A stretch of 64,000 nt of DNA from Clostridia bacterium (GTDB taxonomy: Bacteria > Bacillota > Clostridia > Oscillospirales > CAG-272): positions 2,760 through 66,759 of the forward strand of contig JAGBAS010000116.1 in the NCBI GenBank assembly GCA_017938885.1, written 5' to 3'. This document shows positions 795-45,232 of this stretch, piece by piece. Position numbers and translations under genes: made by a program. Within the stretch, counting starts at the first letter, position 1, and each line of letters starts with the position of its first letter. Under the pieces are notes generated by a model, which saw only the letters and a list, made by a program, of their open reading frames with translations, ran no database searches and was not told where the DNA came from.

Positions 795-3635
795 TTGCCC
801 GAGTCGAAAAAAACAACCAAAAAGCCTGAAACAACCTCCGCAAACGTGGATTGGGCGGAGCGGCTGAAGGCGTCCATGAATCAAACCCTCGGCGAGCGTA
901 CCGCCTCCGCGCCCATGGCGGAGGAGGATGATCTGGCTGCCCTGCTCCGCGCCCAGCTGGCGAAAAGGGAGGAGCCGCTTCCGACCGTGAATCAACCGGA
1001 CCTTGAGGGATTCGAGCAAGAAGAGCCGGCAGTACATACCGAGGAGCCGACCGTTGAGACGGCGTCCCCCGATCCCGTCGGGATGCCCGACTCTGTCAAA
1101 GAGAATGCCGGGGAGCCGACTGACGAGGCAGCATTCCATGAGCCCGCCGAAGCCTTTGTCCCCGCCGAAGCCTTTGTCCCCGCCGAAGCCAATATCGAGG
1201 AGCCGACCGTTGCGGTGAAGTCCGACGCCCCCGTCGAGAGCCTTGCTCCTACCGAAGCCGATAACGCCGTATCGGCGGGCAACAGAGCTGAAGTCCCCTG
1301 TCCGGAGGCACTTCTGTCCATGCCGACCGACGGGGAAGAGGACCTGCTTTCCCCCGACGGAGTTATCGGGGATCCACGGCTGGTCGCGGCCGAAAGGGAG
1401 AGCGCGCGTCTGCTGGAGGAGCTGTATCCGGAGGAGCCTGCCCGCAAGGAGGATGAGCTTCCCCCGGCTGAGGACGGGCTTGCGGAGGAGCCGTTCTCTC
1501 AGCCCTCAGAGCCATCGGATCGGGGAGACGCCGCCGTGCCGCCCTCCATCGACCCCTTGCAGCTGGGGCTGGACGACATCCTGCCCCACGGCGAGACCGT
1601 CGGCCTGCTCCGCGAGGAGGCGTCGGACGGATCTGCCTCGGGAAGCTACGCCGCTTCCATGATCCGAACCTCCCAGGAGAGTGCCGTACAGGATACCGAG
1701 CTCTACCTGAGCCTGGGCTATGAGGAGCAGATCGCCCGAACCGACCGCCATGCCGTCCTGGAGGAGGCGCGCCGCCGTGCGCGGGAGAGGGCGGAGCAGT
1801 CCTCCCGAAATGAAACCGCAACCGTCAAGTCCCGCCGTGAATATACCGACCGCTCCCAGACTCCCGGGATCGAGGGCTCCTACAGCCGCGCCAAGCGTGG
1901 GGGGATGGCCCGTCTGTGCGTGGCGGCGGTGGGGGCTCTGTTCGGGCTTTTGTACGATCTTTTGGGCGTTCTGAACCTCTTGCCGGGATTATTCGTCGAT
2001 CCGACTGTTCCGCTGTATCCGCTCCTTAGCGTGCTGTGGACGCTGTTTGTCTGTATCCCTTTTCTGAGCCGCCTCGGACGGGGGCTGAAGAGCCTGATGG
2101 ATTTTGAGCCGACCCGCTATGCGGTGTCTGCGGTGGCTCTCCTGGCGGCCGTTGCCTACGGCATCCTGGGGATCTTTATCCCCATGCCCTGCCTGTACGG
2201 CGGAGTCGCTTTGCTGATGCTGACAGTCGCCGCCGCTTCGGAATATATGACGGTCATAGCCGAGAGCCTGGCCTTTTCGGTGGTATCCGCCGGGAAACCC
2301 GTGTACACTCTCACCGACGAATTGACCCCCGCTTCTGCGGCCAATGCAGAGGCAGCGCCCAAGGAGCGCACCCTGACCGCCGTCCGCGCCGGAAGACTGG
2401 CGGATTATTTCGCGCGCACCGGACGGTATAATCCCTACATGGGTCGCTTGAATTACCTCCTTCCCGTTGCTCTGCTGGCCGCGATCCTTTGCGCGGGACT
2501 GGCACTTCTGCGGGGCGGGAGCATCATGGCGCACGCTCTGCCCGTTTTCATGGGAACCTACCTGCTTTGCCTGCCCGCCGCATACCTGGTGGCCATGTGC
2601 CTGCCGCTTTTACGGGCGAACGGCCTTCTGGGGCGAAAGGGGGCTGCGGTGATCGGAGCTGCCGCGCCTGCGGACACCGTGCAGAAGGGAAGCACGCGCA
2701 TCTTGATCCCCGACGGGGATGCTCTGGGCGGCCTCAACCGCAAGGAGATCACCCTGCGGGACGATCCGCACATCTCTCTTTGGCGTCATAAGGCCAACTG
2801 CCTGTTTTTGCTGCTGGAAAGCACGCTGAGCCGCGAGCCTGTCTCGGGGCAGGAGGGAAGCGAGGGCTTTGCGGTTGAGGTCGCAGAGACCGAGGAGGGA
2901 TACGCACGGCTGTATCTGGTGGATCTGCGGGGGGGAGACACCACCGAGATCATGATGGGCTCCCGCGATGCCCTGTCCCGCCGTGGGATCCGCCTTCCCA
3001 AGGCATCCATGGAGCGGGTCTACAAGAAGACCGAGGACAGTCAGGTGATCTACCTGGCCTTTGACCGCACCTTCCGCATTGCCTATTCGGTGGAGTACCG
3101 CGTGGGCCGCACCTTCGCCCGCGCTGTCTCCGGCCTTGCCTCCATGGGGGATACGGCCGCCGTGGTGACCTATGATCCCATGGTCAGCGCCGCACTCCTG
3201 GAAGCGGAGGGTCTTGAATCTGCCGCCGGGGCAAGACTGCTGCGCCCCTCTTATGCGGAGCCCTTCTGCCGTTTTCGCTCGGGCAATACCGTCGCAACGG
3301 GACGGAGCCTGGATCTTCTCTACCCCTACGCCGCCTGCCGCCGTATGCGTCGCGTATACCGTTTGGCGCACTGGTTGGCCTGGCTGTCCTTGCCCTTTTC
3401 GGTGGGAATCGCTGTACTGGCGGTGCTCACGGGGCAGGATATCCTGCTGTCCTCCGCCGCCGTATCCGCATGGCAGCTTCTTTGGACGGGACTGCTCACC
3501 CTGGTCAGCCTGTCCTCTGTGACCCGCAAAGCTCTGTTTTTGCCGTCGGATCGGATGGCCAAGCGGCCTTCCGAACCGATTCCCGAGGCGACTCCATCCC
3601 AAACCAATACAGATAAGGATCAAACATCATCATGA
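795..3635 (+). CDS. Large multi-pass membrane protein of unknown function with acidic Pro/Glu/Ala-rich N-terminal region
   Basis: 946-codon ORF with a TTG start 7 nt after GGGAGGG. The N-terminal ~350 aa are low-complexity and acidic. Several hydrophobic helices follow (LCVAAVGALFGLLYDLLGV, LLAAVAYGILGIFIPMP, etc.). The stop overlaps the next start (ATGA). Confidence 0.7.
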   Translation: MPESKKTTKKPETTSANVDWAERLKASMNQTLGERTASAPMAEEDDLAALLRAQLAKREEPLPTVNQPDLEGFEQEEPAVHTEEPTVETASPDPVGMPDSVKENAGEPTDEAAFHEPAEAFVPAEAFVPAEANIEEPTVAVKSDAPVESLAPTEADNAVSAGNRAEVPCPEALLSMPTDGEEDLLSPDGVIGDPRLVAAERESARLLEELYPEEPARKEDELPPAEDGLAEEPFSQPSEPSDRGDAAVPPSIDPLQLGLDDILPHGETVGLLREEASDGSASGSYAASMIRTSQESAVQDTELYLSLGYEEQIARTDRHAVLEEARRRARERAEQSSRNETATVKSRREYTDRSQTPGIEGSYSRAKRGGMARLCVAAVGALFGLLYDLLGVLNLLPGLFVDPTVPLYPLLSVLWTLFVCIPFLSRLGRGLKSLMDFEPTRYAVSAVALLAAVAYGILGIFIPMPCLYGGVALLMLTVAAASEYMTVIAESLAFSVVSAGKPVYTLTDELTPASAANAEAAPKERTLTAVRAGRLADYFARTGRYNPYMGRLNYLLPVALLAAILCAGLALLRGGSIMAHALPVFMGTYLLCLPAAYLVAMCLPLLRANGLLGRKGAAVIGAAAPADTVQKGSTRILIPDGDALGGLNRKEITLRDDPHISLWRHKANCLFLLLESTLSREPVSGQEGSEGFAVEVAETEEGYARLYLVDLRGGDTTEIMMGSRDALSRRGIRLPKASMERVYKKTEDSQVIYLAFDRTFRIAYSVEYRVGRTFARAVSGLASMGDTAAVVTYDPMVSAALLEAEGLESAAGARLLRPSYAEPFCRFRSGNTVATGRSLDLLYPYAACRRMRRVYRLAHWLAWLSLPFSVGIAVLAVLTGQDILLSSAAVSAWQLLWTGLLTLVSLSSVTRKALFLPSDRMAKRPSEPIPEATPSQTNTDKDQTSS
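1143..1190 (+). repeat. 18-bp in-frame tandem repeat (2.7 copies) encoding PAEAFV-PAEAFV-PAEA
   Basis: cccgccgaagcctttgtc occurs at 1143-1160 and 1161-1178, with a partial copy at 1179-1190. Confidence 0.9.
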
Positions 3636-20010: not shown

Positions 20011-20156
20011 TTGCCCTCTCACCCGCCTGCGGCGGGAGCTCCCCCAGAGGGGGAGCCTTTCGTGCCAAACTCCAAAGATCCCATTTGCCCTCAAGTGTTT
20101 TCCGCCGTCCCAAGGCTCCCCCTTTGGGGGAGCTCCGCGCAGCGGTGAGAGGGCAA
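20011..20156. repeat. Nested-palindrome intergenic element (REP/MITE-like)
   Basis: Imperfect ~45-49-bp inverted arms at 20011-20059 (ttgccctctcacccgcctgcggcgggagctcccccagagggggagcctt) and 20112-20156. Each arm contains its own small hairpins. Confidence 0.8.
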
Positions 20157-23526: not shown

Positions 23527-23695
23527 GGGCGCACACATAGGTGCGCCCCTACCCCCGTTATCGAAACCGACGCATTCCGCCGACACGGTTGCCATCGGTA
23601 AGGGCATACATGGGGTGCGTCCTATCCCAATAGAGCGCTTCAATATACCCCTTTAAGACATTACCTCCGGTAGGGGCGCACCTATGTGTGCGCCC
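23527..23695. repeat. MITE-like element with 27-bp perfect terminal inverted repeats
   Basis: gggcgcacacataggtgcgcccctacc (23527-23553) and its exact reverse complement (23669-23695). Each arm is itself a hairpin (GGGCGCAC..GTGCGCCC). Confidence 0.85.
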
Positions 23696-25084: not shown

Positions 25085-25284
25085 GTGTGACCCTCATCCG
25101 TCACGCCCTACGGGCGTGCCACCTTCCCCTTAGGGGAAGGCAAGACTATGAGGAAAGCTCTCTTTTCCTTGATTCATAAAGTAAAAACAAACTTTTGGCG
25201 GTAAGGGAGAGCGCCCATTCCCTCATGCCTGCCTTCCCCCGGGGGAAGGTGGCACGCCGCAGGCGTGACGGATGAGGGTCACAC
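25085..25284. repeat. Nested-palindrome intergenic element (REP/MITE-like), ~57-bp imperfect inverted arms
   Basis: Left arm 25085-25142 (gtgtgaccctcatccgtcacgccctacgggcgtgccaccttccccttaggggaaggca). Right arm 25230-25284 is its near reverse complement. Confidence 0.8.
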
Positions 25285-27765: not shown

Positions 27766-29841
27766 ATGAGCCATACACCCACCGTCATCGTCGCAAAGAA
27801 CGCGGGCTTCTGCTTCGGTGTCGCCCGCGCCACCAAGGCCGTGGAGACCGAAATGGCGGAGCACCCCGCGGGGGAGCGCATCTTCACCTTGGGCCGCCTG
27901 ATCCACAACGAGATCTACAATCAACGCCTGGCTGCGGGAGGCGTGACCGTCATCTCCGCCGAGGAGCTCCCCCGCCTGGCCGCCGAGGCCACTCCCGAGG
28001 CCCCCGTCAAGGTCTTTGTCCGTGCCCACGGCATGACCAAGGAGACCGAGGCACTTCTCACCGCCTGCGCCGCAAAGAACCCCGCCTTTTCCTTCGTGGA
28101 CTGCACCTGTTCCTTCGTCAAGAAGATCCACCGTATCTGCGCCGAGCATAACGAGTTGAATGAAAACGCCCGCCGCGAGACGGGAAAGGACGACCGCATC
28201 CTCGCCGTTCTGGGCTCTGCCGATCACCCCGAGGTCGTGGGATTTCTCAGCCGTTTCGAGGGGAAAAAGGTGGTTTTTAGCAATGCCGCCGAGGCTGAGA
28301 CGCTTCTGTCCGACGGTACCGTCCCCACAGATGGTTCCGTGATCCCCGTTCTGGTGGCACAGACGACCCAGAATATCACCGAATGGGAAAAGACAAAAAA
28401 AATTTACAATTTAATCTTTACGCGTCCATATATTTATGATACAATTTGCAGTATTACGGACTCCAGACAGAACGAAGCCGCTGAGCTCGCACGCAAATGC
28501 GATCGCATCATCGTGATCGGGGGCAGAGACAGTTCCAACTCTGCCAAGCTCTATTCGATCTGTAAGAACATTTGTGCTGACACCGTGTGGGTGGAGCGCG
28601 CAGACGAGCTGCCTGAGAATAGTCCGCCCTATCAAAGAATAGGGATCGTGGCAGGAGCATCGACTCCCCGCGATATCATTGAGGAGGTAACAAACAAAAT
28701 GAGCGAGACCATGAACGAAAACTTCGCGGAGCTGCTTGAGGATTCCCTCAAGACATTAAATACAGGAGATACTGTGACCGGTATTATTACCAGCATTAGT
28801 GCAGGCGAGATCCAGCTTGACCTCGGCGCCAAAGTCACCGGCGTTATCAAGCAGGAACAGATCACCGATGATCCTTCCGCAAAGCTGAGCGAGATGTTCA
28901 AAATCGGAGACCAGGTGGAGGCATTCGTGATCCGTGTCAGCGACCGCGACGGCTTCGCTGAGCTCTCCAAGAAGCGCGTTGACTCCGACAAGAACTGGCA
29001 GAGCATCGTTGCCGCATACGAGGCAGGCGAGAATCTGGAGGGTAAGGTCATTTCGGTCAACAAGGGCGGCGTTGAGGCCATTGTCCGCGACAACCGCGTA
29101 TTCATTCCCGCAGCCCACACCGGTATTCCCCGTGAGGGCGATCTGTCCACTCTGGTCGGTCAGACCGTGACTCTCCGCATCCTGGAGATCGGCGACCGCA
29201 AGAGAGCCAAGGGCTCCATCCGTCTGGTTCTCCGCGACCAGAAGCGCGCCCAGGAGAAGGCTTTCTGGGAGGAGATCGAGGAGGGCAAGATCTACACCGG
29301 TACCGTCAAGTCCATGACCAGATACGGCGCATTCGTGGATCTGGGCGGCGTGGACGGTATGGTTCACTGCTCCGAGCTGTCCTGGAAGCGCATCAAGTCT
29401 CCCGCTGAGGTTCTGGCTATCGGCGACGAGATCACCGTCTTCGTCAAGAGCTACGACGCTGAGAAGAAGCGCATTTCTCTGGGCTACAAGACCGAGGCTA
29501 CTAACCCCTGGTTCATCTTCACCCACCAGTACGCCATCGGCGATACCGCTCCCGTTAAGATCGTCAGCCTGATGCCCTTCGGCGCATTCGCTGAGATCGT
29601 GGACGGTGTGGACGGTCTGATCCACATTTCCCAGATTGCTGACCACAAGATCGGCAAGCCCGCCGACGTTCTGGAGGTTGGTCAGGTCGTGGATGCCCGC
29701 ATCATCGACATCGACAACGACAACCAGAAGGTCAGCCTGTCCATCCGCGCTCTGCTGGAGGAGGCTAAGGCCGCCGAGGAGGCTGCTCCCGTCGAGGAGA
29801 CCCCCGCCGAGGACGGCGTGGTCTACACCACCGAGGAGTAA
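27766..29841 (+). CDS. ispH: Bifunctional 4-hydroxy-3-methylbut-2-enyl diphosphate reductase (IspH/LytB) / ribosomal protein S1 fusion
   Basis: N-terminal IspH (AKNAGFCFGVARA, VAQTTQ, DTICSITDSRQ, GGRDSSNSAKL). The C-terminal part has four S1 repeats (GDTVTGIITSI.., GKVISVNKGG.., YTGTVKSMTRYGAFVDLGG, APVKIVSLMPFGAFAEI). Confidence 0.9.
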   Translation: MSHTPTVIVAKNAGFCFGVARATKAVETEMAEHPAGERIFTLGRLIHNEIYNQRLAAGGVTVISAEELPRLAAEATPEAPVKVFVRAHGMTKETEALLTACAAKNPAFSFVDCTCSFVKKIHRICAEHNELNENARRETGKDDRILAVLGSADHPEVVGFLSRFEGKKVVFSNAAEAETLLSDGTVPTDGSVIPVLVAQTTQNITEWEKTKKIYNLIFTRPYIYDTICSITDSRQNEAAELARKCDRIIVIGGRDSSNSAKLYSICKNICADTVWVERADELPENSPPYQRIGIVAGASTPRDIIEEVTNKMSETMNENFAELLEDSLKTLNTGDTVTGIITSISAGEIQLDLGAKVTGVIKQEQITDDPSAKLSEMFKIGDQVEAFVIRVSDRDGFAELSKKRVDSDKNWQSIVAAYEAGENLEGKVISVNKGGVEAIVRDNRVFIPAAHTGIPREGDLSTLVGQTVTLRILEIGDRKRAKGSIRLVLRDQKRAQEKAFWEEIEEGKIYTGTVKSMTRYGAFVDLGGVDGMVHCSELSWKRIKSPAEVLAIGDEITVFVKSYDAEKKRISLGYKTEATNPWFIFTHQYAIGDTAPVKIVSLMPFGAFAEIVDGVDGLIHISQIADHKIGKPADVLEVGQVVDARIIDIDNDNQKVSLSIRALLEEAKAAEEAAPVEETPAEDGVVYTTEE
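28417..28445 (+). promoter_or_regulatory. Candidate internal promoter (TTTACG-17-TACAAT, TGn-extended) inside ispH, upstream of the S1 moiety
   Basis: It lies in an AT-rich patch within coding sequence. 250 nt downstream is GAGGAGG, then 11 nt, then an in-frame ATG at 28699 (MSETMNENFAELLEDSL, an S1-like N-terminus). Confidence 0.4.
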
Positions 29842-29940: not shown

Positions 29941-30074
29941 GTCCTCGCTTCGCTCGGGGGCAAGTTGCGAGAACAGAGCATAAACAGGAGCTTTACGGGC
30001 AACTTGCACAGGTTCTTCATAACCCATTACCTGTACCAATAGAAAGAGGAGGGAACAAGCCCCTCCCCTTTCTA

Positions 30075-30099
30075 TTGGTACGGGTAACAGGACTTGAAC
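30075..30099 (-). repeat. att-core copy B (attL of the prophage): tRNA 3'-end fragment next to integrase
   Basis: Identical 25 bp. Here the next 5 nt complete the T-stem (ACAGG/CCTGT), but no D or anticodon arm or acceptor 5' strand follows. Confidence 0.8.
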
Positions 30100-30172: not shown

Positions 30173-31249
30173 CTATTTTGAGAGAAATTTGCAGAAATAT
30201 TCCTGCATCTGATCCTCCACAGATGTCTTTTTCGATGCCATGATATGGCCATAAACCTTATCGATCATGTTCTCGCTTTCGTGACCAACATAATCCGCAA
30301 TATACTTCTTCGGGATATTTAAAGATAGCATGACGGACACGGTGTAATGCCGCAAGTCGTGAAACCGGTAGTGCGGTAGATCATGCTTTTTCAGCAACCG
30401 GGGAAACTGGTTGCTGATGATATTCGGGCGCGGGGCTATGTAGTCGCCCGTGTCCGGGTGGGTCTCCTTATAAGTTTTCAGCGCGTCGCTGACGAGAGGG
30501 AACATGCGGATCGTTCGGGTGCCGGCGGCTGTTTTGGTGGTCTTTTCAACGAAATCGTTTTTATCGTTGATAACCACGGCGTGATTGATGGAGATCGTGT
30601 TCCGGACGAAATCGATGTTGCTCCATTTGATGGCGCAGATCTCCGAGCGTCGAAGGCCGCAACAGGCGGCCAGAAGGATAGGGATCTCCAGATCCGAACC
30701 GACTGAGATTTCAAACAACCGCTTTACATCCTCTTCTGTTGGCACAGTGATCTCGCTTTTTTTCTTTTGCGGGAGCGTAGTCGCAAAAGTAAAGTCCGGG
30801 CGATAGATCGAAAAAACAGACGAAAGAAAGCCGTGGAGGTTTCGCACGGTTTTCGGAGATCGGGTGATGGAGATCTTGTTGATTTCCACCTGGATCTGCG
30901 CCGGGGTGATTTTTTCAATGGGGGTGTTGCGCAAATCGTCGAAATGGTTCTTGGCGAAGCCTTGGTAAAGCCGGAGTGTTGTGGGAGATAACACGCCCGT
31001 TTTCATGGAGACAAATTCCGTCATAGCCTCACCGAGGGTGGGGCTTTTCTTTGCGCCCTCGATCTTTTCGCGCTTTTTGTCAGCCTTGAATTGCGCAACC
31101 TCCAAGAGCACAGCGTTATAATCATAGCTTGTGAACGACTCATACCGCCTCTTGCCGTCTGCGTCTGTGTGGCTGTAGACCTTGGCATGGTACGCCCCGC
31201 TTGGCAGCTGCTTGATGGCGGGCAACCTGGTGTTTCGTTTTTTCGGCAT
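30173..31249 (-). CDS. Tyrosine-type site-specific recombinase (phage integrase)
   Basis: N-terminal SAM-like/arm-binding region. Catalytic region ..AACCGLRRSEICAIKW.., HDLRHYTVSVMLSLNI, VGHESENMIDKVYGH (R..HxxR..Y pattern). Confidence 0.9.
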   Translation of the reverse strand: MPKKRNTRLPAIKQLPSGAYHAKVYSHTDADGKRRYESFTSYDYNAVLLEVAQFKADKKREKIEGAKKSPTLGEAMTEFVSMKTGVLSPTTLRLYQGFAKNHFDDLRNTPIEKITPAQIQVEINKISITRSPKTVRNLHGFLSSVFSIYRPDFTFATTLPQKKKSEITVPTEEDVKRLFEISVGSDLEIPILLAACCGLRRSEICAIKWSNIDFVRNTISINHAVVINDKNDFVEKTTKTAAGTRTIRMFPLVSDALKTYKETHPDTGDYIAPRPNIISNQFPRLLKKHDLPHYRFHDLRHYTVSVMLSLNIPKKYIADYVGHESENMIDKVYGHIMASKKTSVEDQMQEYFCKFLSK

Positions 31250-31252
31250 ACT

Positions 31253-31735
31253 CTACCTCCGTAAAAACCCAATGTCCCCGTGAAACACATCTACCACAAA
31301 GTAAGCCGTCAGAGCGATACAGCAGCAGCACAGCACCGCGCCGAGCACGAAAACCACCGCAGTCAGCTTGGCGTTGTTCTTTTCGTATCGGGCGTTACGG
31401 TCCCGTACCTCGGCCAACAGTTTTTCCATTTCGACGAGCTGGGCCTCCTTGACCTTGAGCACGGTATCGTAGGACTCGACCACGGTCTCCACCTCCTTGG
31501 GCGGCTCCTCGCCGGGGAGAGCCACGGAAAGGATCTTGTCTACGGATATGCCCAGGGCGATGGCGATGGTCAGGACGTTTTCAAAGCCGGGCCGCTTGCT
31601 CGCGCCGCTTAGGATGCGGGAGACGGTGGTCTCGGGGATGTGGGTCATCTCGGAAATATCCTCGTTGGACAGGTGCTTGGATTTTTTGATCTCTCGGATT
31701 CTCTCAATAAGAATTTGTGTGTAATCCATTTTCAT
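31253..31735 (-). CDS. XRE-family HTH protein with coiled coil and C-terminal transmembrane anchor (membrane-tethered repressor candidate)
   Basis: HTH LSNEDISEMTHIPETTVSRILSG; coiled coil KVKEAQLVEMEKLLAEVRD; TM LTAVVFVLGAVLCCCCIALTAYFVV. The stop lies 4 nt before the int start. The exact start is uncertain (31735, 31729 or TTG 31750). Confidence 0.7.
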   Translation of the reverse strand: MKMDYTQILIERIREIKKSKHLSNEDISEMTHIPETTVSRILSGASKRPGFENVLTIAIALGISVDKILSVALPGEEPPKEVETVVESYDTVLKVKEAQLVEMEKLLAEVRDRNARYEKNNAKLTAVVFVLGAVLCCCCIALTAYFVVDVFHGDIGFLRR

Positions 31736-31769
31736 CTCACTTTCTTGCAATTTTAGTATCGAAAAATTT

Positions 31770-32236: not shown

Positions 32237-32239
32237 TGC

Positions 32240-32320
32240 GGAACGATAGGAGGTATTTGTGGAACGATAGGAGGTATTTGCGGAACGATAGGAGGTATTT
32301 GCGGAACGATAGGGGGTTAT
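32240..32320. repeat. Four tandem 21-bp iterons ggaacgataggaggtatttg(t/c)
   Basis: Copies at 32240-32260, 32261-32281 and 32282-32302, with a degenerate copy at 32303-32320. They are intergenic or abut the stop of the SWIM gene. Confidence 0.9.
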
Positions 32321-33411
32321 TTTTTGGGAACAGGTGTTGTGCGTAGCTTATCAAAATATATTTTCATGGAATTCTCAAATAGATCTTTTCGAACCGACAG
32401 TACGCCAGCATGGTATGCCAAAAACAGCATATGCTTGCACGGCTGTTTTGTTTTTGCGTAATCGGTACAATTACAACGAGTCAAAGATGTATCGTGATAT
32501 GCGCCAGTTTCAGACCGAACTGTTGCGCTGATGTGAATACTACCCAAAAACTCAATATTTTCGATTTGAGAACGATGAAACCTTTTGTCTTTGACGCGCT
32601 CGTAAAAATCAAACATAGTAGGATAACGATAGAACCGTTCAGCACCTGTCTCCAACCGATTTAAAGCATCTAAATACAGGGCACTAATAGAGTCTTCATC
32701 TATAAGGTTAGTTTGAGTAGAAAGATTCACTGAATGTTTCTCGCCTGCTTTTTCAGCTTCTTTTTTATAAAAAGTAAGGTGATCGTCTAATCTTTTGATT
32801 GTAGCGTTTTTCTCGGCTATTTCCTTCTTGTATCTTTCTTCAGAGGATTTGTAAGAGCGAAGTTGAACATTCAGCCAGTCAATCTCGCTTGCGGATTTCA
32901 AATCTCGTAATTTGGATATTTCGTCTCGAAGTTCTTTTTCAGTTTGCTTTTGGATAGATAAACTTATTTCAAGGCTTTTTTTATCACTTTCTAAAAACCT
33001 GATCTTGGATTCGTAATCTGAAATGATCTTCCGAAGCGAATTGTTTTCCTGCTTGTATGTGCTGATTCTCGCATCAAGGCTTTTCTCTTGCTCTTTAAGA
33101 CGTTTTTCAAACTCTTGCAGTTCCAGTTGCTTTTTTTGTGCTTCTGAGGCTTTTTTGGTCGCATCTGACATTCTCATATTATAGGCAAGTTCTTTTTGTA
33201 TGCGATCACGAGCCTCATCGGAAAGATTTAAAGAGCCTTCAGAACTCTTTTTAATTTCATCTGTTCCTCGCAAAGGTAAACCAACCAACCTGCGATATTT
33301 GTTCTCCCACACCTGGGATTCTTTTTTGCAAGCGGATAAGTTGCAAGCCAAAACAATTATTGCAATGACGGCAGCAGGAGTTGCTAATCCAACGAGATAC
33401 AGAAATTCCAT
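32317..33411 (-). CDS. Membrane-anchored long coiled-coil protein with C-terminal SWIM zinc finger (unknown function; low-GC moron)
   Basis: N-terminal TM LVGLATPAAVIAIIVLAC. About 200 aa of heptad-rich K/E/L sequence follow. SWIM CxCxnCxH: CNCTDYAKTKQPCKH. A 60-nt sample (32701-32760) has 22/60 G+C against 43/60 at 33901-33960. Confidence 0.75.
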   Translation of the reverse strand: MEFLYLVGLATPAAVIAIIVLACNLSACKKESQVWENKYRRLVGLPLRGTDEIKKSSEGSLNLSDEARDRIQKELAYNMRMSDATKKASEAQKKQLELQEFEKRLKEQEKSLDARISTYKQENNSLRKIISDYESKIRFLESDKKSLEISLSIQKQTEKELRDEISKLRDLKSASEIDWLNVQLRSYKSSEERYKKEIAEKNATIKRLDDHLTFYKKEAEKAGEKHSVNLSTQTNLIDEDSISALYLDALNRLETGAERFYRYPTMFDFYERVKDKRFHRSQIENIEFLGSIHISATVRSETGAYHDTSLTRCNCTDYAKTKQPCKHMLFLAYHAGVLSVRKDLFENSMKIYFDKLRTTPVPKK

Positions 33412-33412
33412 A

Positions 33413-33757
33413 TCAGTCGCCCTTCTTCCTACTCAATATAAACTCCGCATATCTTTCCAGATCAGCCAGCTCCTCCGCGCTCATGCTGTCGATCAGAGAG
33501 AGAAGCTTCGGGTCTACCGTTACGGTAGGCTCTTTTTCTTTTTCAGCGAAGCGTTGAAGATCCAGCGGCACATTGCCGAGCAGGTAGTCCACGCTTACAC
33601 CGAAGTAGTCGGCGACTTTCTTCAAAGTGTTGTTTCGAGGGGTAGCCCCGTTTTTCCACTTTGTTGCCGTAGCGTTGGACAACCCCAACTCGGCGCACGC
33701 ACCGTTAGGCGAAATACCTTTAACGGTACAAAGAGACACGAATGTTTCCCAAAACAT
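33413..33757 (-). CDS. XRE/cI-like HTH repressor
   Basis: SD AAAGGAGG before the ATG at 33757. HTH ISPNGACAELGLSNATATKWKNGATP..LKKVADYFGVSVDYLLG. The stop lies 1 nt before the SWIM gene start. Confidence 0.8.
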   Translation of the reverse strand: MFWETFVSLCTVKGISPNGACAELGLSNATATKWKNGATPRNNTLKKVADYFGVSVDYLLGNVPLDLQRFAEKEKEPTVTVDPKLLSLIDSMSAEELADLERYAEFILSRKKGD

Positions 33758-33847: not shown

Positions 33848-33876
33848 TTGACAAGTTAGACAAAGTAAGATATAAT
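33848..33876 (+). promoter_or_regulatory. Consensus early promoter (TTGACA-17-TATAAT)
   Basis: ttgaca at 33848-33853, a 17-nt spacer, and tataat at 33871-33876. It is divergent from the cI-like gene. Confidence 0.8.
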
Positions 33877-33882
33877 GACAGT

Positions 33883-34010
33883 ACCACCTCCGCCGAGGGA
33901 TCAGCCGAAACGGTCAACCACCCCGTTCCGCCCTCCGGCGAGAAGGCGGCCCGCCGCTTGAAAAACGGGTTCGGGCCAGCCGATAATCAGCCGTCCGAGG
34001 CGGAGGTGGT
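33883..34010 (+). ncRNA. Candidate structured RNA/leader closed by a 12-bp perfect helix, starting at the predicted +1 of the early promoter
   Basis: accacctccgcc (33883-33894) pairs with ggcggaggtggt (33999-34010). Inside are AACGG..CCGUU and CCGCC/GGCGG-type helices and a duplicated AUCAGCCG. No credible ORF is present. The strand is not resolved, because the arms are perfectly complementary. Confidence 0.45.
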
Positions 34011-34036
34011 GCCAAGCTCCCCTGGCTTTCTTGTTC

Positions 34037-34082
34037 GAATTTTCCCCCCTGCTCGTGGTGCCATACGGGCGGGGGAAAATTC
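34037..34082 (+). other. 12-bp perfect hairpin downstream of the structured element
   Basis: gaattttccccc (34037-34048) pairs with gggggaaaattc (34071-34082) across a 22-nt loop. No U-tract follows. Confidence 0.5.
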
Positions 34083-34138
34083 GGGGCGGGGGCGTTAAAA
34101 AGTAACGGAATATAATATAAGGAAGGGAAGGTGAAGGA

Positions 34139-34465
34139 ATGGAAGATGTGAAGAGGGTCAACGTGGACGGTGAGGAATACGTGATCGTACCGATCTGCCC
34201 TATGACGGGATACCCGGAGCGGTATACCAAGGGAAGGACCGAGGAGGAGATCGCGGATTTTCGTGAAAGTATTCGAGATATACTGGGACGAAGTATCTAC
34301 GACTACGCTGAGCGGTGCGGAGCATTGAAGAGAACCGACACCGTTTATGAAAATGGGGATACGATCATCGAATGCGAGTTGCAGGTGCTTGTCAAGGCTC
34401 AGGCTTGGGAGGAAGCGGTCCACGAGGATCAAGAACGGAATCCTCCTTGTAATCGTGATACATGA
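34139..34465 (+). CDS. Hypothetical phage early protein (108 aa)
   Basis: Coding-like codon pattern (gaa gat gtg aag agg gtc aac gtg gac..) and a purine-rich SD region. Its 3' end overlaps the convergent 34392-34646 gene by 74 nt. Confidence 0.6.
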   Translation: MEDVKRVNVDGEEYVIVPICPMTGYPERYTKGRTEEEIADFRESIRDILGRSIYDYAERCGALKRTDTVYENGDTIIECELQVLVKAQAWEEAVHEDQERNPPCNRDT

Positions 34466-34646
34466 GGTATTCCATCAAGAACTTGCGGCATTGCTTGCAA
34501 GGCTCGGAGTAAACGTGAATGTCACAGCCTTGAGGATCCGGAACAGGGCCAAGAGGAGAATGGTACATATCAACGGGAGTTGATCGGATCGTTCGGAAAT
34601 TGTCGCGGCAACAGCGGATGCGGACGGAGATACGGTCTGCACTCAT
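34392..34646 (-). CDS. Hypothetical Cys-rich small protein (84 aa)
   Basis: Canonical SD GGAGG, 6 nt, then the ATG at 34646. MSADRISVRIRCCRDNF...GCDIHVYSEPCKQCRKFLMEYL. Confidence 0.6.
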   Translation of the reverse strand: MSADRISVRIRCCRDNFRTIRSTPVDMYHSPLGPVPDPQGCDIHVYSEPCKQCRKFLMEYLMYHDYKEDSVLDPRGPLPPKPEP

Positions 34647-34648
34647 AG

Positions 34649-34683
34649 GAAACCTCCAACAAGAAAAATAGGGAAAGGACGGT
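34649..34683. repeat. 35-bp repeat (copy 1) forming a bidirectional RBS spacer between head-to-head starts
   Basis: gaaacctccaacaagaaaaatagggaaaggacggt is identical to 35070-35104. It carries GGAGG for the minus gene and GAAAGGA for the plus gene. Confidence 0.9.
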
Positions 34684-34689
34684 GAAGGA

Positions 34690-34863
34690 ATGGAAGATGT
34701 GAAGAGGGTTGTAAACAAGAGAAACGAGGAGTTCCGCAGATCGTTTCTAAAGGATGTTTATCGACCGATCCTTACGAATCTGCGATGTCAGCCAGACCAT
34801 GGTACAGCCTTTTCAGCTTGGCTGGATCGTAGGCTGTTGGATAGGAGTTTACGGCATATGTGA
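34690..34863 (+). CDS. Possible small ORF (57 aa) sharing its first 7 codons with the 34139 gene
   Basis: The 29-bp repeat ggtgaaggaATGgaagatgtgaagagggt (34130-34158 = 34681-34709) supplies the SD and MEDVKRV. The ORF is below the track threshold. It overlaps the convergent 34772-35068 gene by 92 nt. Confidence 0.3.
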   Translation: MEDVKRVVNKRNEEFRRSFLKDVYRPILTNLRCQPDHGTAFSAWLDRRLLDRSLRHM

Positions 34864-35069: not shown

Positions 35070-35104
35070 GAAACCTCCAACAAGAAAAATAGGGAAAGGA
35101 CGGT
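35070..35104. repeat. 35-bp repeat (copy 2), bidirectional RBS spacer
   Basis: Identical to 34649-34683. It lies between the minus start at 35068 and the plus start at 35111. Confidence 0.9.
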
Positions 35105-35110
35105 ACAAGA

Positions 35111-35562: not shown

Positions 35563-35964
35563 ATGCAAAGAAACTACTTCAAGGAGCGGGTGGAGCTCCG
35601 CATGGCCGCGTTGGGCATCGTCCAGAAGCAGCTGGCCGAGAAGCTCGATAAGCCCATCCAGAGACTCACCGAGGCCCTGCGCGGGGACAACACCGCCGCC
35701 GCACAGAGCCTGCGGGTCAAGATCGACCTGGCCCTCACGGGGATGTGCGACGAGAAGCGCGAGCAGATGGCCGCAGAAATCGAGAGGGTCAGAGCGGTGC
35801 AGTGCCCCCACCTCACGGGCAAGCTCTCGGTGATCCTCCCCGAGGACACCATCTACATCGTCACCGAGGACGGGATCCCCGTGGGCTCCTGGAACCCCGT
35901 GACCAACACCTACAGCGAGCTGGACGCGGTGCTGATGCCCGTGGTGGGGAGGAGGATAAAATGA
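35563..35964 (+). CDS. HTH (Cro/XRE-like) early regulator with C-terminal extension
   Basis: SD AAGGAG before the ATG at 35563. RMAALGIVQKQLAEKLDKPIQRLTEALRG. Confidence 0.65.
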   Translation: MQRNYFKERVELRMAALGIVQKQLAEKLDKPIQRLTEALRGDNTAAAQSLRVKIDLALTGMCDEKREQMAAEIERVRAVQCPHLTGKLSVILPEDTIYIVTEDGIPVGSWNPVTNTYSELDAVLMPVVGRRIK

Positions 35965-37611: not shown

Positions 37612-39363
37612 ATGGCTACGAAAAAGAAGCCTCTTGACCAAGAGGAAGTAGAGCGGGTACGCCAAGCACTGCCGATGCGCCCGACCGATGCGGATATCGA
37701 AGAGCTTCAGCGGCGTGGATACCTGAAAAATGAACTGTACCTCTTTGAGAAGGACTACGTTCGCAATCCGATAACGGGAGAGAAAAAGCCCGCGGTCAAG
37801 GCTTACTGTACGGCCTGCGGCGTAAACTACTGGTATACATACGTTTCGGGTCCGAACTGTTGCCACGGTGCCTATGGAAGTAGCGAACCTTATGGGTTTT
37901 ATCTGGATGATTCGATCCCGGAAGCCAAGAAGGACGGCGACAAATTCGCTTGCCCCGAATGTGGGTGTTTGGTGACGGCAAAACGTAAAGAAAAATACAA
38001 CTATTCAAACGAGATACACGCGGAAACAAAGGAGATCTGTAAAATACAAAAGATTGAAGGACACCTGGCCGCGATCAAATGGAGAGTCTACAAGCAGTAC
38101 ACCAAGGAAGGAAAGTTGATATTGACATATAGACGGGAAGAGGCAAGCGTGGTTATCGACCGGCATCTATGTCGTTACTCGGGAAGAGGCACGTATAGGG
38201 ACTACTACAGACGAGAGAGGTGGTACACAATCCAGGAGAATAAGGACAGGATCGACAACGTAGAACGAGGGTGTGTGCTGTTCGACCATGGCGTAGAGAT
38301 CGGAACAGATAGTGAGAACTGCGGCATATCTGAGTTCTTGATGGGGATAGACAAAACCATGAACTGCAAGCCTGGGGCATACATGCAGATTTGGTGTCAG
38401 AGACCAAATGTGGAGAATCTGGCCAAGGCTGGATTGTCCAAATATTTGCAAGCGTGCATAGATGAGAGTTATAAGATCACGGGATATTATGAAAGAAAGA
38501 CGAGTTACGTTCGGGTAACAATGTTAGAAGAGGCCATTGACCTTAAAAGGGCCAAGCCGCATGAGATGCTGGGTGTGGAGAAGCCCGAGCTGGAATTGGC
38601 TCGGGATCCGATGATCAAGCCTGAATGCTTCGACTTTTACAGGAGGGTCAAGGCAGAGGCCGGCATTCGGTTGACGAAGGATCAATTGGTATTCGTCGGA
38701 TCACTTAAACTGCAAGACCTGAACCAAATGCTGTTTGTAGGCAGGAATGATTTCAAACCGCCCGTGGAGAAGACCATAAACTATCTTGCGAAGCAGGTCA
38801 AGCTGAAGGGGCCGCACATCATAACCGTGCACTATTTGCGGGACTACTGGGACGCGGTCTATAAGGTCTACGGTCGCATGGAGCCTTCCATGCTGTGGCC
38901 GAGCGATCTTGTCCGCGCCCATGACTCTATGAACAATCGAGTCAAGTGGAAGATCAACGAAGAACTGAAAGAAGGTTTCAAGAAGCGGAAGAAGGAGCTT
39001 GCGCCATTGGCGTTCGTGTCCGAGGAGCTGGGACTTGAGATCTTCCCGGCAGGGAGCGAGGCCGAGCTGATCCGCGAGGGAGACAAGCTCCACCACTGCG
39101 TGGCTCGGTATGCCAAGGATCACGCCAGCGGAAAGACAGCGATCTTGTTCATCCGCCGGCTCGCGGACCGAAAAACACCCTTCTATACGCTGGAATGGAG
39201 GGACGGAAGGATCAATCAAAACCACGGCGACAGGAACATGCCTCAGACCAAGGAAATACTCGCGTTTGAAAAGCTATGGCTGGCTCACGTTGCCTCACTG
39301 AATAAAAAGAAAGGAACCCAAGTAAATGGAACCCAAGACCAACCTACCCGCCTCGCCGTCTGA
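37612..39363 (+). CDS. PcfJ-like protein
   Basis: C-terminal LIREGDKLHHCVARYAKDHASGKTAILFIRRLADRKTPFYTLEW resembles the PcfJ domain signature. The N-terminal half is Cys-rich. Confidence 0.6.
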   Translation: MATKKKPLDQEEVERVRQALPMRPTDADIEELQRRGYLKNELYLFEKDYVRNPITGEKKPAVKAYCTACGVNYWYTYVSGPNCCHGAYGSSEPYGFYLDDSIPEAKKDGDKFACPECGCLVTAKRKEKYNYSNEIHAETKEICKIQKIEGHLAAIKWRVYKQYTKEGKLILTYRREEASVVIDRHLCRYSGRGTYRDYYRRERWYTIQENKDRIDNVERGCVLFDHGVEIGTDSENCGISEFLMGIDKTMNCKPGAYMQIWCQRPNVENLAKAGLSKYLQACIDESYKITGYYERKTSYVRVTMLEEAIDLKRAKPHEMLGVEKPELELARDPMIKPECFDFYRRVKAEAGIRLTKDQLVFVGSLKLQDLNQMLFVGRNDFKPPVEKTINYLAKQVKLKGPHIITVHYLRDYWDAVYKVYGRMEPSMLWPSDLVRAHDSMNNRVKWKINEELKEGFKKRKKELAPLAFVSEELGLEIFPAGSEAELIREGDKLHHCVARYAKDHASGKTAILFIRRLADRKTPFYTLEWRDGRINQNHGDRNMPQTKEILAFEKLWLAHVASLNKKKGTQVNGTQDQPTRLAV

Positions 39364-40465
39364 CACGGCGATCACCCGCACCCCCGCCCACGTGGCGGCG
39401 GATATCAATGCCGTAAAAACCCATGCGTCTGCGGTTTTCCGCGCCGCCGTGGATGAGGGCAAGCGCTCCTGCATCCTCATCGGCAAGCTCCTGGAGGAGG
39501 CCAAGAGCCTCGTATCCCACGGTGAGTGGGGGGCATGGCTCAAAGATAACGTGGACTACTCCGAGTCCACCGCCCAGAACCTCATGCGCTGTTACCGTGA
39601 GTTCGGCGATGAGCAGATCGACTTCTTCTCCGGCGTTTCCGATGCCGACTTCTTTTCGATCCTCACCCAGTCCCAGATGCTGGAGTTGCTGGCCCTGCCC
39701 AAGGATCAGCGGCGCGGGTTTGTGGAGGAACACCGTGCGGAGATCGAGGACGGCAGCCTCTCCACCCGCCAGATGCGGGATGAGATCGACAAGCTCAAGC
39801 GGGAGGCCGCCGCGAAGGACGAGGAGCTGGAGGCCGCCCGGGGCAAGATCCAGGGCCTCACCACCGAGCTGGATGGGGAGCGCAACAAGCCCGCGCCGGA
39901 GCCTGTGGAGAAGGTGGTGGTCACCCATCAGCCTTCCCCCGAGCAGATCGACAAGATCCGCGCCGAGGAGGCCGCCAAGGCTGACAAGCGGATCGAGGAT
40001 CTGAAAAAGGCGCAACAGCTTAGGATGGATGCCACATTGCAAGACAAGTACAAAGTCGAGGAAGCCCTCGACAAGGCCAAGAAGGCAAGAGAGAAGGCAG
40101 AAGCGGAGCGCGACGCCAAGGACGAAGCCCTCAAGAAGGCCCACACCGACCACGAGGACCAACTGGCCGCCCTGACCGAAAAGCACGAAGCCGAGCTGAA
40201 GGCCGCCCGCGAGGAAGGGAACGCCGACGCGGAGACCGCCGCCGAGGCCGCCAAGCGCATCGAGGAGCTGGAGAAGAGCCTCAAGATGGCCAATCCTGCC
40301 GTGTCCGAGTTCCGTGGCCTCTTCAGCGCGGCGAACAGCCTCATCATCACCCTGAAGGACAAGCTGGAGACCGTGCGCGGGACCGATCCTGACGCGGCGG
40401 CCAAGCTGGACCGAGCCATGGCCGCGCTGGCGGCGACCATCACGAAAAAGGAGGAATCCGCATGA
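39326..40465 (+). CDS. DUF3102-family protein with long charged coiled-coil C-terminus
   Basis: ILIGKLLEEAKSLVSHGEWGAWLKDNVDYSESTAQNLMRCYREFG. It overlaps the upstream gene by 38 nt. Confidence 0.7.
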   Translation: MEPKTNLPASPSDTAITRTPAHVAADINAVKTHASAVFRAAVDEGKRSCILIGKLLEEAKSLVSHGEWGAWLKDNVDYSESTAQNLMRCYREFGDEQIDFFSGVSDADFFSILTQSQMLELLALPKDQRRGFVEEHRAEIEDGSLSTRQMRDEIDKLKREAAAKDEELEAARGKIQGLTTELDGERNKPAPEPVEKVVVTHQPSPEQIDKIRAEEAAKADKRIEDLKKAQQLRMDATLQDKYKVEEALDKAKKAREKAEAERDAKDEALKKAHTDHEDQLAALTEKHEAELKAAREEGNADAETAAEAAKRIEELEKSLKMANPAVSEFRGLFSAANSLIITLKDKLETVRGTDPDAAAKLDRAMAALAATITKKEESA

Positions 40466-43773: not shown

Positions 43774-44289
43774 ATGGAGAGAAGGAGACCGGAAGACTAC
43801 AACGAGAACTATGGACGACCTTTTGTAAGTCAGCCCGCCAGCCCGCCTGCCAACAGGGGACGAGGGGACGCCTACTGGGTATCAGGTGACGGAGGGGCGC
43901 CTGTACCGATCCACCGCCGCCTGTCCTTCAAGGAGGCGATCACCAAGGCGGAGGATCAGATCGGATTCCACGAGTACAGCCGCCAGCACTCCTGCTACGG
44001 CATCCTGCACGATATGTGCCGCGCCATGGCAGAGGTCTACATGATGTCCCCGACCACAAAGATCAAGGTCAACGGCGAGGAGCTGGAGGCGGGGATGGTG
44101 GCCGACGTACTGGAGCAGGTGACCACGGAGATGGCCGAGATCCGCGCTGAGGAGCTGAGGGAGACCATCGCGGGCGTTACCAACATCAAGGCCTACCTGC
44201 GGAGCGCACTCTACAACAAGGTCTTTGAGTTCGAGGCCGCCGACGTCAAGCTGGAGGAGCAGGTCAAGAGGGACATGGGGCGGCGTTGA
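43774..44289 (+). CDS. Hypothetical phage protein, possibly replication-associated
   Basis: SD AGAGGAG before the ATG at 43774. The C-terminal ..NIKAYLRSALYNKVFEFEA resembles a motif I recall from replisome-organizer-type proteins (weak evidence). Confidence 0.45.
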   Translation: MERRRPEDYNENYGRPFVSQPASPPANRGRGDAYWVSGDGGAPVPIHRRLSFKEAITKAEDQIGFHEYSRQHSCYGILHDMCRAMAEVYMMSPTTKIKVNGEELEAGMVADVLEQVTTEMAEIRAEELRETIAGVTNIKAYLRSALYNKVFEFEAADVKLEEQVKRDMGRR

Positions 44290-44314
44290 CCGCCCCGGGA
44301 AAGGAGAACCGAAC

Positions 44315-45232
44315 ATGAAAAGCATGATCGAATACAGCCGCGAGACCGGCTACAACATGGGCCTGGAATACTGCGACGCCCTCCTGTACCGCGTCCGCTG
44401 TAAGCCCAAGCAGAGACGAGCCCTGGGCAAGCCCACCAGCGAGGCGCAGGCCGTCATCAACGAGAAAAACAGAAACATGAACTTCCTGCGAAGCATCAAC
44501 GCGAACTTCTTAGAGGGCAGAGATCTGTTCATCCTTTTCACCTTCCGCGAGAACCCCAAGACAAGAGCAGAGACCAAGCGACTCATGGACAACTTTCTGC
44601 GTCGGGTCAAGAGGGCGTGGGAAAAGCGCGGTCTGTCCGAGTGGGAGATCCGGCACAACAAGGGCAAGAAGCTCCCCTTTAAGTGCAGATACGTTATCGA
44701 GGGCGACGACGGCAAAAGAATGCACGTGCACACCTTTATGACGGGCGGCCTCGCATGGCAGGAGATCAAGTATCTGTGGGGGATGGCCGATGTGGTAAAC
44801 CCCCGCGTGTTGCAGGGATCCAAGAACGGATTTGAGGCCGCAGTCAAGTACGTGGCCAAGCAGGGCGGCCTTGCCAAAGGAGAGCACCACTGGTATGGTA
44901 CCCGAAATCTGGTCAAGCCCGACTACGCAGAGCGCAACAATCAGATCTCTCGCGAAGATATAGAGGAGCTGGCTGACGTGATCGAGGATATCAATGCACA
45001 CGTTGGCGAGGGCGTGACCCCCACCGAGGAGCGTTTCGCGCCCATCGAGGAGCGGTATCCCAACTACTACCTCGCGGAAGCAGACGCAAAGTACATAGAG
45101 GCTTTCGGGGAGTGGGTGATCCATATCAAACTTTACCGCAAGGACACGGAAGCCGGGAAAATCGAAGAAAACAGACGTGCGGCGGAGCTTGAGCAGATCA
45201 AGGCCCGTCGGGCGAAGTTTGGTGCGCTCTAA
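44315..45232 (+). CDS. HUH-superfamily rolling-circle replication initiator (Rep)-like protein
   Basis: SD AAAGGAG before the ATG at 44315. Motif I-like FILFTF, the HUH motif HVHTFM, and a Tyr motif AAVKYVAKQ. Confidence 0.6.
   Translation: MKSMIEYSRETGYNMGLEYCDALLYRVRCKPKQRRALGKPTSEAQAVINEKNRNMNFLRSINANFLEGRDLFILFTFRENPKTRAETKRLMDNFLRRVKRAWEKRGLSEWEIRHNKGKKLPFKCRYVIEGDDGKRMHVHTFMTGGLAWQEIKYLWGMADVVNPRVLQGSKNGFEAAVKYVAKQGGLAKGEHHWYGTRNLVKPDYAERNNQISREDIEELADVIEDINAHVGEGVTPTEERFAPIEERYPNYYLAEADAKYIEAFGEWVIHIKLYRKDTEAGKIEENRRAAELEQIKARRAKFGAL

Follow-up and report, generated by a model that had tools for sequence, protein, structure and literature searches.

A conserved three-way-junction RNA in the early leader of a lineage of temperate phages

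The 64 kb stretch of Clostridia bacterium DNA analysed here (contig JAGBAS010000116.1; hereafter the window, whose positions serve as coordinates throughout) carries a tailed prophage, and positions 33883-34010 of it encode a conserved three-way-junction RNA on the + strand. The element is a real, previously undescribed structured RNA family, with no match among the described RNA families. It lies directly 3' of a consensus promoter, beside the gene of a CI-like repressor. The original prediction, made from the letters of the DNA, had proposed that the early transcript starts with a structured RNA encoded by the phage. This has held: about 20 homologous prophage or phage loci conserve the element, with covariation in its helices. 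Both conservation and covariation, the lack of which in homologous phages had been named as grounds for abandoning the idea, were thus found.

The observation from which the analysis started is that ACCACCTCCGCC (33883-33894) is perfectly complementary to GGCGGAGGTGGT (33999-34010), the two arms enclosing 104 nucleotides (nt); the predicted 12-base-pair (bp) pairing is exact in all its coordinates. The + strand RNA of 33883-34010 has a folding energy of -65.5 kcal/mol (z = -3.8 against dinucleotide shuffles). The inverted repeat alone is not beyond chance, since 30 pairs of perfect 12-nt inverted repeats within 150 nt occur in the whole window. The element is considered real because it is conserved, with compensatory changes, in homologous phages. 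Its parts in the window are as follows.

33883-33894, + strand: 5' strand of helix P1, starting at the likely +1 and perfectly complementary to 33999-34010
33895-33935, + strand: P2, a variable hairpin whose base, GAGGG/CCCUC, is kept as a pairing while the remainder is swapped wholesale among loci
33936-33993, + strand: P3, a composite arm
33936-33939 and 33990-33993, + strand: P3a, CGGC/GCCG
33940-33944 and 33982-33989, + strand: asymmetric internal loop of P3, GAGAA/GAUAAUCA
33945-33947 and 33979-33981, + strand: P3b, GGC/GCC
33948-33978, + strand: P3c, a variable hairpin
33994-33998, + strand: junction strand J3/1, UCCGA (UCCGU in most homologues; consensus UCCGW)
33999-34010, + strand: 3' strand of P1

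Across the family the element measures 109-142 nt, and its guanine-plus-cytosine (G+C) content of 62-70% stands against 27-39% in the adjoining promoter region. P1 comprises 9-12 bp, the window having an extra U-A pair compared with the others (CACCUCCGCC/GGCGGAGGUG against CACCCCGCC/GGCGGGGUG). P3b takes the form GGC/GYC, with GC-to-GU changes in five sequences. The internal loop of P3 has the family form (G)AGAA/GAYNAUC(A). Its nucleotides AGAA, GA and AUC, as well as the UCCG of J3/1, are invariant in all 19 distinct sequences, while the loop G58 and the A107 opposite are lost together in seven of them. The direct repeat ATCAGCCG at 33900-33907 and 33986-33993 is not a family feature, because its 5' copy lies within a variable hairpin and is missing from the homologues. 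Two further details pointed out earlier, the helix AACGG/CCGUU and the duplicated AUCAGCCG, are indeed present in the window but are specific to it and not conserved, the helix lying within the variable parts. No believable open reading frame (ORF) had been seen across the leader, and no conserved one crosses it; the homologues differ by indels of 1-2 nt and by replacements of whole hairpins.

The homologues came to light through the first ORF of the prophage's early operon, whose 108-amino-acid (aa) product has 27 relatives in the protein collection; the contigs of these relatives show a conserved region upstream. A covariance model built from 10 homologous loci gave 78-119 bits in 21 loci, corresponding to 19 distinct sequences. 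These loci were drawn from the window, 12 assembly contigs, the locus L081, the IMG/VR contig L225 and 7 contigs found by a motif scan of a metagenome collection. In every one of them, the element is found directly 3' of a TTGACA-17-TATAAT promoter and, wherever the contig extends far enough, adjoins a divergent CI-like repressor gene.

Single-sequence folds, done independently, gave the same three-way junction in 8 of 10 homologues. In the model-guided alignment, 98.3% of the 418 pair cells hold standard pairs, and 8 of the 22 pairs show changes on both sides; these counts are taken from an alignment fitted to the model, of only 19 distinct sequences that are related and mosaic. The covariation score of 0.226 compares with 0.094 ± 0.012 for shuffles, none of the 500 of which reached it. 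When the registers were shifted by 1-3 columns, the pairing fell to 33-56% and the covariation score to 0.05 or less. Double compensatory changes were seen in 4 of the 9 modelled pairs of P1, and at the base of P2 three of four pairs covary (AU/GC/GU and GC/UA). P2 and P3c are swapped wholesale and combine freely among loci, which therefore points to modular recombination around an invariant core.

The same alignment also indicates the molecule and the strand. Counted over the junction and hairpins 2 and 3, which follow it in the leader, the paired columns contain 27 G-U or U-G cells against a single A-C cell. Only an RNA of the + strand would be expected to show this asymmetry, which speaks against an RNA of the - strand as well as against a DNA cruciform or a symmetric protein site.

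No known RNA family had been recognised in the element beforehand, and none was found. With permissive E-values, Rfam cmscan of the region and 8 homologous loci on both strands returned just chance matches of the microRNA-precursor type on hairpin 2, and the whole window gave no Rfam match at gathering scores. A scan for transfer and transfer-messenger RNAs found none. Some 260 other loci, comprising most of the loci with related repressors and the chance pattern matches in high-G+C genomes, were scanned with the covariance model, and no convincing score was obtained. Among 80 IMG/VR loci with related repressors, neither the element nor hairpin 2 was detected by blastn, nhmmer or regular expressions (all 80) or by the covariance model (53 of the 80). 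A blastn search of 50,697 phage genomes gave no match, nor did exact-pattern scans of IMG/VR with the window's own P1 and the first conserved cores. A G+C-rich pattern scan of genome contigs yielded at least 120 matches by chance, and among those listed none had a convincing covariance score (best 25 bits, E = 0.004); all the listed records that could be recognised were of high-G+C genomes such as Streptomyces. When IMG/VR was scanned for the part of the leader from hairpin 2 to TATAATA, the already known L225 was the sole real match. Thus, as far as sampled, the family appears to be confined to one lineage of temperate phages.

The junction is the first part of a non-coding leader of about 255 nt with several hairpins. 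In every locus, the order 3' of P1 is a linker hairpin, a pyrimidine-rich tract, hairpin 2, a G-rich tract, hairpin 3, TATAATA and a purine-rich ribosome-binding site. In the window these are the following.

34011-34035, + strand: linker, with a short hairpin (GCCA...UGGC) and a pyrimidine-rich tract (CUUUCUUGUUCGAAUU), the tract being present in all homologues
34036-34083, + strand: hairpin 2 (UUUUCCCC...GGGGGAAAA), with perfect 13-bp arms at 34036-34048 and 34071-34083
34084-34093, + strand: G-rich tract (GGGCGGGGGC; (C)AGGGCGNGGGCG in homologues)
34094-34106, + strand: hairpin 3 (GUUA AAAAG UAAC)
34111-34117, + strand: TATAATA, about 230 nt into the transcribed leader and invariant in all aligned leaders, including that of L277
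34121-34141, + strand: purine-rich ribosome-binding site (GGAAGGGAAGGUGAAGG) and start codon of the 108-aa ORF

Hairpin 2 had been predicted as a 12-bp hairpin at 34037-34082. It exists, but is slightly larger than that: with its inner GCUCG/CGGGC pairs it reaches about 18 bp in the window, and about 16-19 bp across loci. It is conserved, with four covarying pairs and 12 U-G cells. A role as terminator was rejected for both strands, each of which reads with the U-run 5' and the A-run 3'. In hairpin 3, four of five pairs covary (GUACC/GGUAC, GUAA/UUAC and GCGCA/UGUGC, the last with a G-U). A role as a repressor operator was rejected for it, because L091 and L093 differ in hairpin 3 despite nearly identical promoter repeats. 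The GCCA after P1 recalls a tRNA, but this likeness was also set aside, its distance from P1 ranging from 1 to 14 nt. TATAATA is not supported as a second promoter: it has no -35 partner on either strand, and the promoter scan calls none at 34111-34117. Candidate roles for it are a pause signal that depends on sigma, a promoter that needs an activator, and a signal at the RNA level. Among the homologous pyrimidine tracts (34020-34035 in the window) is, for example, CUUCUUUGAG of L085. Words such as UUCUUUGAG and UUGUUC immediately before hairpin 2 resemble the presumed boxA consensus of Firmicutes rrn operons (UGUUCUUUGAAAA).

In full-leader folds, 50-87% of the ribosome-binding site is paired, chiefly with the linker or the pyrimidine tract. 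Masking of the site by the tract was considered and not retained as a specific feature: it is energetically strong, yet the complementarity is barely above that of composition-matched shuffles (mean z = -1.2). In some leader types the 3' strand of P1 can alternatively pair with the linker, but such pairings are not conserved across types.

The surroundings of the leader are those of a lysogeny module. Host genes fill the left half of the window, and the tailed prophage runs from about 30.1 kb. The relevant features are these.

27766-29841: ispH-S1 fusion gene, in the host part of the window and typical of Clostridia
30173-31249, - strand: integrase gene
31253-31750, - strand: XRE-type regulator gene
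32317-33411, - strand: SWIM-domain protein gene
33413-33757, - strand: gene of a 114-aa CI-like helix-turn-helix (HTH) repressor (Pfam HTH_3 and PHROG transcriptional repressor match), divergent from the early promoter
33848-34138, + strand: promoter and leader
33848-33876, + strand: early promoter, TTGACA at 33848-33853, a 17-nt spacer and TATAAT at 33871-33876, matching the consensus at 12 of 12 positions
34139-34465, + strand: first ORF, 108 aa, no family match
35530/35563-35964, + strand: Cro-like HTH gene
37612-39363, + strand: PcfJ gene
39326-40465, + strand: DUF3102 gene
44225-45232, + strand: gene of a PHROG 'replication initiation protein', no Pfam Rep match

The terminase, portal and capsid genes lie further right in the prophage. 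Because of this order of repressor, promoter and Cro-like gene, the element occupies the classic position of a PR-type early leader. A divergent HTH gene homologous to the CI-like repressor gene was seen in every locus with a long enough contig. The same TTGACA-17-TATAAT promoter stands upstream of P1 in all homologues, and the short repeats in its spacer, which are presumed operators, vary by locus. The coordinates predicted for TATAAT and for the start of P1 about 7 nt further on are exact; P1 starts 7 nt past the -10 box in the window and 8-9 nt past it in the homologues, the TATAAT-to-P1 distance being fixed in all loci.

Some repeats were also noticed in this part of the window. Between the XRE and SWIM genes of the lysogeny module there is a tandem repeat of four 21-nt copies (32237-32322; TGCGGAACGATAGGAGGTATT, 93% matches). 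An imperfect 38-nt inverted repeat (30016-30098; 82% complementary, 7-nt loop) lies between the ispH-S1 and integrase genes, at the likely left boundary of the prophage, and could be a terminator or part of the attachment region. The host part holds long perfect inverted repeats at 23527-23695, 20011-20156 and 25113-25258 (27, 25 with 13 nested, and 17 nt, respectively, with 50-120 nt between the arms). These may be elements resembling repetitive extragenic palindromes (REP) or miniature inverted-repeat transposable elements (MITE), or structured RNAs.

What follows the leader differs from phage to phage. The first ORF is of at least three unrelated types among the loci (MEDVKRVNVDGEEY..., MDLSKIGKCELC... 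and MSRKKDRYFLEHH...), and two loci, L081 and L277, have no ORF directly after the element. In L277 the next gene, more than 300 nt on, is a Cro-like gene homologous to 35563-35961 of the window. L081 has three tandem promoter cassettes, and the junction is present only at the first of them, which adjoins the CI-like repressor; the later two promoters are followed by hairpin 2 without the junction. The transcript from the junction promoter of L081 would run antisense into an HTH gene, with more than 1 kb to the next + strand ORF. The element thus occurs once per phage, at the promoter adjoining the CI-like repressor gene, whichever ORF follows. From the varied or missing first ORF and the layout of L081 it follows that the junction goes with the first promoter, and with the 5' end of the early RNA, rather than with a particular coding sequence. 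This weakens the case for a purely translational cis-regulator, and favours an action on the whole transcript or the polymerase, or an independent RNA. As to L081 itself, positions 1431-3003 hold three immunity-like cassettes in a row, each with a - strand HTH gene and a rightward consensus promoter with palindromic operators of its own. Copies of hairpin 2 sit at the cassette joints, and for this reason hairpin 2 may be a recombination joint.

Between the leader and the Cro-like gene, the early operon contains convergent - strand genes and a facing - strand promoter (35536-35508, 12 of 12 consensus positions) with its own terminator, a layout that is conserved in L081, L085 and L277. This promoter has the form TTGACA-17-TATAAT with TG; its sequence overlaps the Cro-like gene's ribosome-binding site, and the terminator hairpin (GCCCGGTTCCAGCGGGC and TATTTGTTT) follows the promoter by about 10 nt. 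The pair is present in four loci (window 35536-35483, L081:3614-3551, L085:3623-3557 and L277), where the product would be either a countertranscript of very short length or, for the - strand genes, an attenuated leader. Also on the - strand, 34392-34643 is a conserved Cys-rich ORF of 83-84 aa without a family match; it is convergent to the 108-aa ORF, overlaps its 3' end by about 74 nt, and was found in every locus with the 108-aa ORF. The segment CCTCCAACAAGAAAAATAGGGAAAGGACGGT occurs twice, at 34652-34711 and 35073-35105, and 34683-34711 is a second copy of the ribosome-binding site and first codons of the 108-aa ORF (GGTGAAGGAATGGAAGATGTGAAGAGGGT). These repeats look like recombination scars of an insertion of about 900 bp that is missing from related loci.

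What the element does for the phage we infer from its conserved surface, fold, strand and position, which the comparison itself establishes. Our preferred though tentative reading is that the junction acts in cis, as a 5'-terminal domain, to protect the early transcript and to recruit RNA polymerase or a factor; by analogy with known leader RNAs this is possible rather than probable. P1 starts either at the predicted 5' end of the early (lytic) transcript, which the repressor controls, or no more than about 3 nt from it, and the junction is the leader's first module. It would fold once RNA polymerase clears the promoter and then act in cis on the same transcript. Stem-loops at the 5' end are known to shield Firmicutes mRNAs from 5'-end-dependent decay, and the 5'-terminal helix, leaving little or no single-stranded 5' end, would do the same for the long early RNA. 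Furthermore, the invariant unpaired surface (the GAGAA/GAYNAUCA loop and the UCCGW strand) would bind a macromolecule, most likely the transcribing polymerase or a host elongation factor. Such binding would keep early transcription processive across the leader and the gene block with its convergent genes and facing consensus promoter, in a manner likened to that of putL of phage HK022, conAn2 and canT. The downstream hairpins, pyrimidine tract and ribosome-binding site would form a separate and more widely reused module, which probably tunes the translation of whichever first ORF is present.

The precedents for such a leader are of two kinds. By position, the best of them is putL, whose first nucleotide is +3 of the PL transcript and which binds the polymerase without the help of a phage protein (PMC9378689). 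In both cases a structured non-coding RNA lies within a few nt of the start of a repressor-controlled early transcript, its cis action being known for put and proposed here, and both have a -10-like element in the transcribed region (PMC9378689). Binding to the zinc-binding domain of RNA polymerase's beta' subunit is a feature of put itself. The second kind comprises the large G+C-rich leader RNAs conAn2 of pLS20 and canT of Tn916, which bring about processive antitermination in Firmicutes mobile elements, conAn2 being bracketed by a 20-bp inverted repeat (PMC8191782; PMC11658703). Like them, the junction, which is closed by a helix, is a large, G+C-rich RNA of several stems near the start of a long mobile-element operon. 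The prophage carries the PcfJ and DUF3102 genes noted above. Such genes are common in Gram-positive conjugative elements. A cis-acting leader is supported by these precedents together with the fixed 5' position, the independence from the adjacent ORF and the obstacles in the operon.

Several points weigh against this proposal. For the window, L081 and L085, prediction gave no intrinsic terminator on the early operon's + strand (Rho-dependent sites being outside the prediction), so the defining substrate of an antiterminator is not visible, whereas the operons of conAn2 and canT hold mapped terminators. The fold is, by covariation, a three-way junction of 109-142 nt, while put has two stem-loops in a V shape over about 70 nt; there is no sequence resemblance by eye, and the hosts are Firmicutes-like rather than E. 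coli. conAn2 and canT extend over 300-450 nt, with no defined consensus fold to compare. Moreover, conAn2 is preceded by the conAn1 gene and depends on the product of that gene, the ConAn1 protein (PF17362, pXO2-34), for processivity. When the 108-aa first ORF was scanned with Pfam together with nine of its neighbours, PF17362 was not matched, so that no ConAn1-type protein is encoded nearby by this measure, and the first ORF also varies by locus. Protection of the 5' end would leave the invariant loops unexplained, because a simple hairpin suffices for it, and the binding of a partner by these loops is a proposal made by analogy. Finally, in one narrow and recombining lineage, some of the conservation may reflect recent shared ancestry and not selection. 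It is a bolder and unlikely reading that the element would be the founding member of a new class of protein-independent, polymerase-reprogramming (anti-pausing or antitermination) RNAs in Gram-positive gut phages or, equally, of a ligand-sensing or catalytic RNA class, likewise new, by which the first step in prophage induction would be gated.

The alternative that survives best, although it too is rather unlikely, is a small RNA acting in trans. Here the junction would be cut out at the single-stranded U-rich linker or at hairpin 2, an RNase III-like target, and would accumulate and bind a protein of the host or the phage; it might, for instance, be a decoy for some factor of regulation or defence. 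The long perfect hairpin directly downstream, the stable helix-closed domain, the independence from the adjacent ORF and loops that stay invariant while the peripheral hairpins are hypervariable and swapped among loci would all agree with this. Phage RNAs processed from leaders do exist, namely the c4 RNA of P1 and the CI RNA of P4, and like the c4 RNAs of P1 and P7 and the CI RNA of P4, the element is a small structured RNA in the leader of an operon for the choice between lysis and lysogeny. However, there is no terminator or defined 3' end after helix P1, and a partner is not identifiable. Unlike in the c4 and CI systems, there is also a protein repressor with operators, and Rfam gives no C4 match. 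Targets in cis of the c4/CI type were rejected, as the loops and variable hairpins do not co-vary with the type of leader downstream: a single P3c type is found with three different leaders downstream, and one leader with different P2 and P3c types. A packaging RNA of the phi29 type was likewise rejected, there being no Rfam match and one P2 type ending in a GAAA tetraloop. Neither c4-like targets nor loop-loop pairing of the packaging-RNA type can be upheld, since the hairpin types show independent assortment, both among themselves and relative to the leader.

It is distinctly unlikely that the element is a riboswitch-like sensor, an aptamer for a small molecule or ion whose P1 would compete with linker pairings and so gate the masking of the ribosome-binding site by the pyrimidine tract. 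The architecture does resemble that of the three-way-junction riboswitches (purine, thiamine pyrophosphate and the like): P1 closes the element, nucleotides of the junction and the internal loop are conserved, the distal stems vary, and the location is in the 5' untranslated region. The paired state of the ribosome-binding site in the full-leader folds would suit such a switch, as would the ability of the 3' strand of P1 to pair with the linker instead (e.g., UGGCGGGGU/ACCUUGCCA in L088). But this alternative pairing is not conserved across leader types, the complementarity of the linker to the ribosome-binding site is hardly above that of composition-matched shuffles, as given above, no terminator is present, and there is no clear expression platform. 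Furthermore, no riboswitch class was matched, the downstream genes are mutually unrelated, suggest no ligand and show no link to metabolism, L081 and L277 have no ORF after the element, and the family was found in one phage lineage only.

A purely structural leader, that is, a 5' stabiliser and folding insulator without a specific partner, whose loops would be held by tertiary packing or by recent ancestry, also seems a slim prospect. It would fit with P1 starting at +1, with a leader that is highly structured throughout and with a narrow, mosaic lineage. Stem-loops at the 5' terminus stabilise Firmicutes mRNAs against RNase J1, and the known stabilisers (ermC, aprE, the early RNA of phage SP82) are like the element in having a helix at the very 5' end and, in the leader, a strong ribosome-binding site rich in purines. 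Those, however, are simple hairpins or sequences like ribosome-binding sites, without a junction with invariant loops. In the element, 18 unpaired nucleotides are invariant while the neighbouring helices vary compensatorily and the hairpins swap, which is more constraint than a stabiliser needs.

That the element is a new self-cleaving ribozyme which trims the 5' end of the early transcript is very improbable: such a role would suit a small junction of several helices that has invariant loop nucleotides and lies in a prophage, and many ribozyme classes occur in prophage settings, but no family model (hammerhead, twister, twister-sister, pistol, hatchet, hairpin, hepatitis delta virus) was matched at E <= 10, and no candidate cleavage site or pseudoknot was identified. 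A DNA-level element, whether a replication origin or nick site for a Rep protein, as the original prediction had offered in the alternative, or a protein-binding palindrome, has next to no likelihood, for in spite of the perfect inverted repeats and the PHROG 'replication initiation protein' gene in the prophage, the excess of G-U over A-C cells at paired columns consists of pairs that are mismatches in DNA and on the - strand, the helices change in sequence with their pairing kept, the element is fixed to the transcription start, and the initiator-like gene is 10 kb away and without a Pfam Rep match.

Leader RNAs close to the promoter are among the few protein-free ways in which a phage can control its whole early programme. 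To our knowledge, few such leader RNAs have been characterised (put, nut, c4/CI and, recently, conAn2 and canT), and none of them belongs to a prophage of anaerobic gut Firmicutes. The element is compact, at about 130 nt, and has good comparative support, a clearly bounded invariant surface and a defined start beside the repressor/operator module, which makes it an unusually tractable candidate. If it were only a stabiliser, it would be an ordinary, lineage-specific leader; if it binds the polymerase or a metabolite, it would represent a new class of RNA in the lysis-lysogeny switch.

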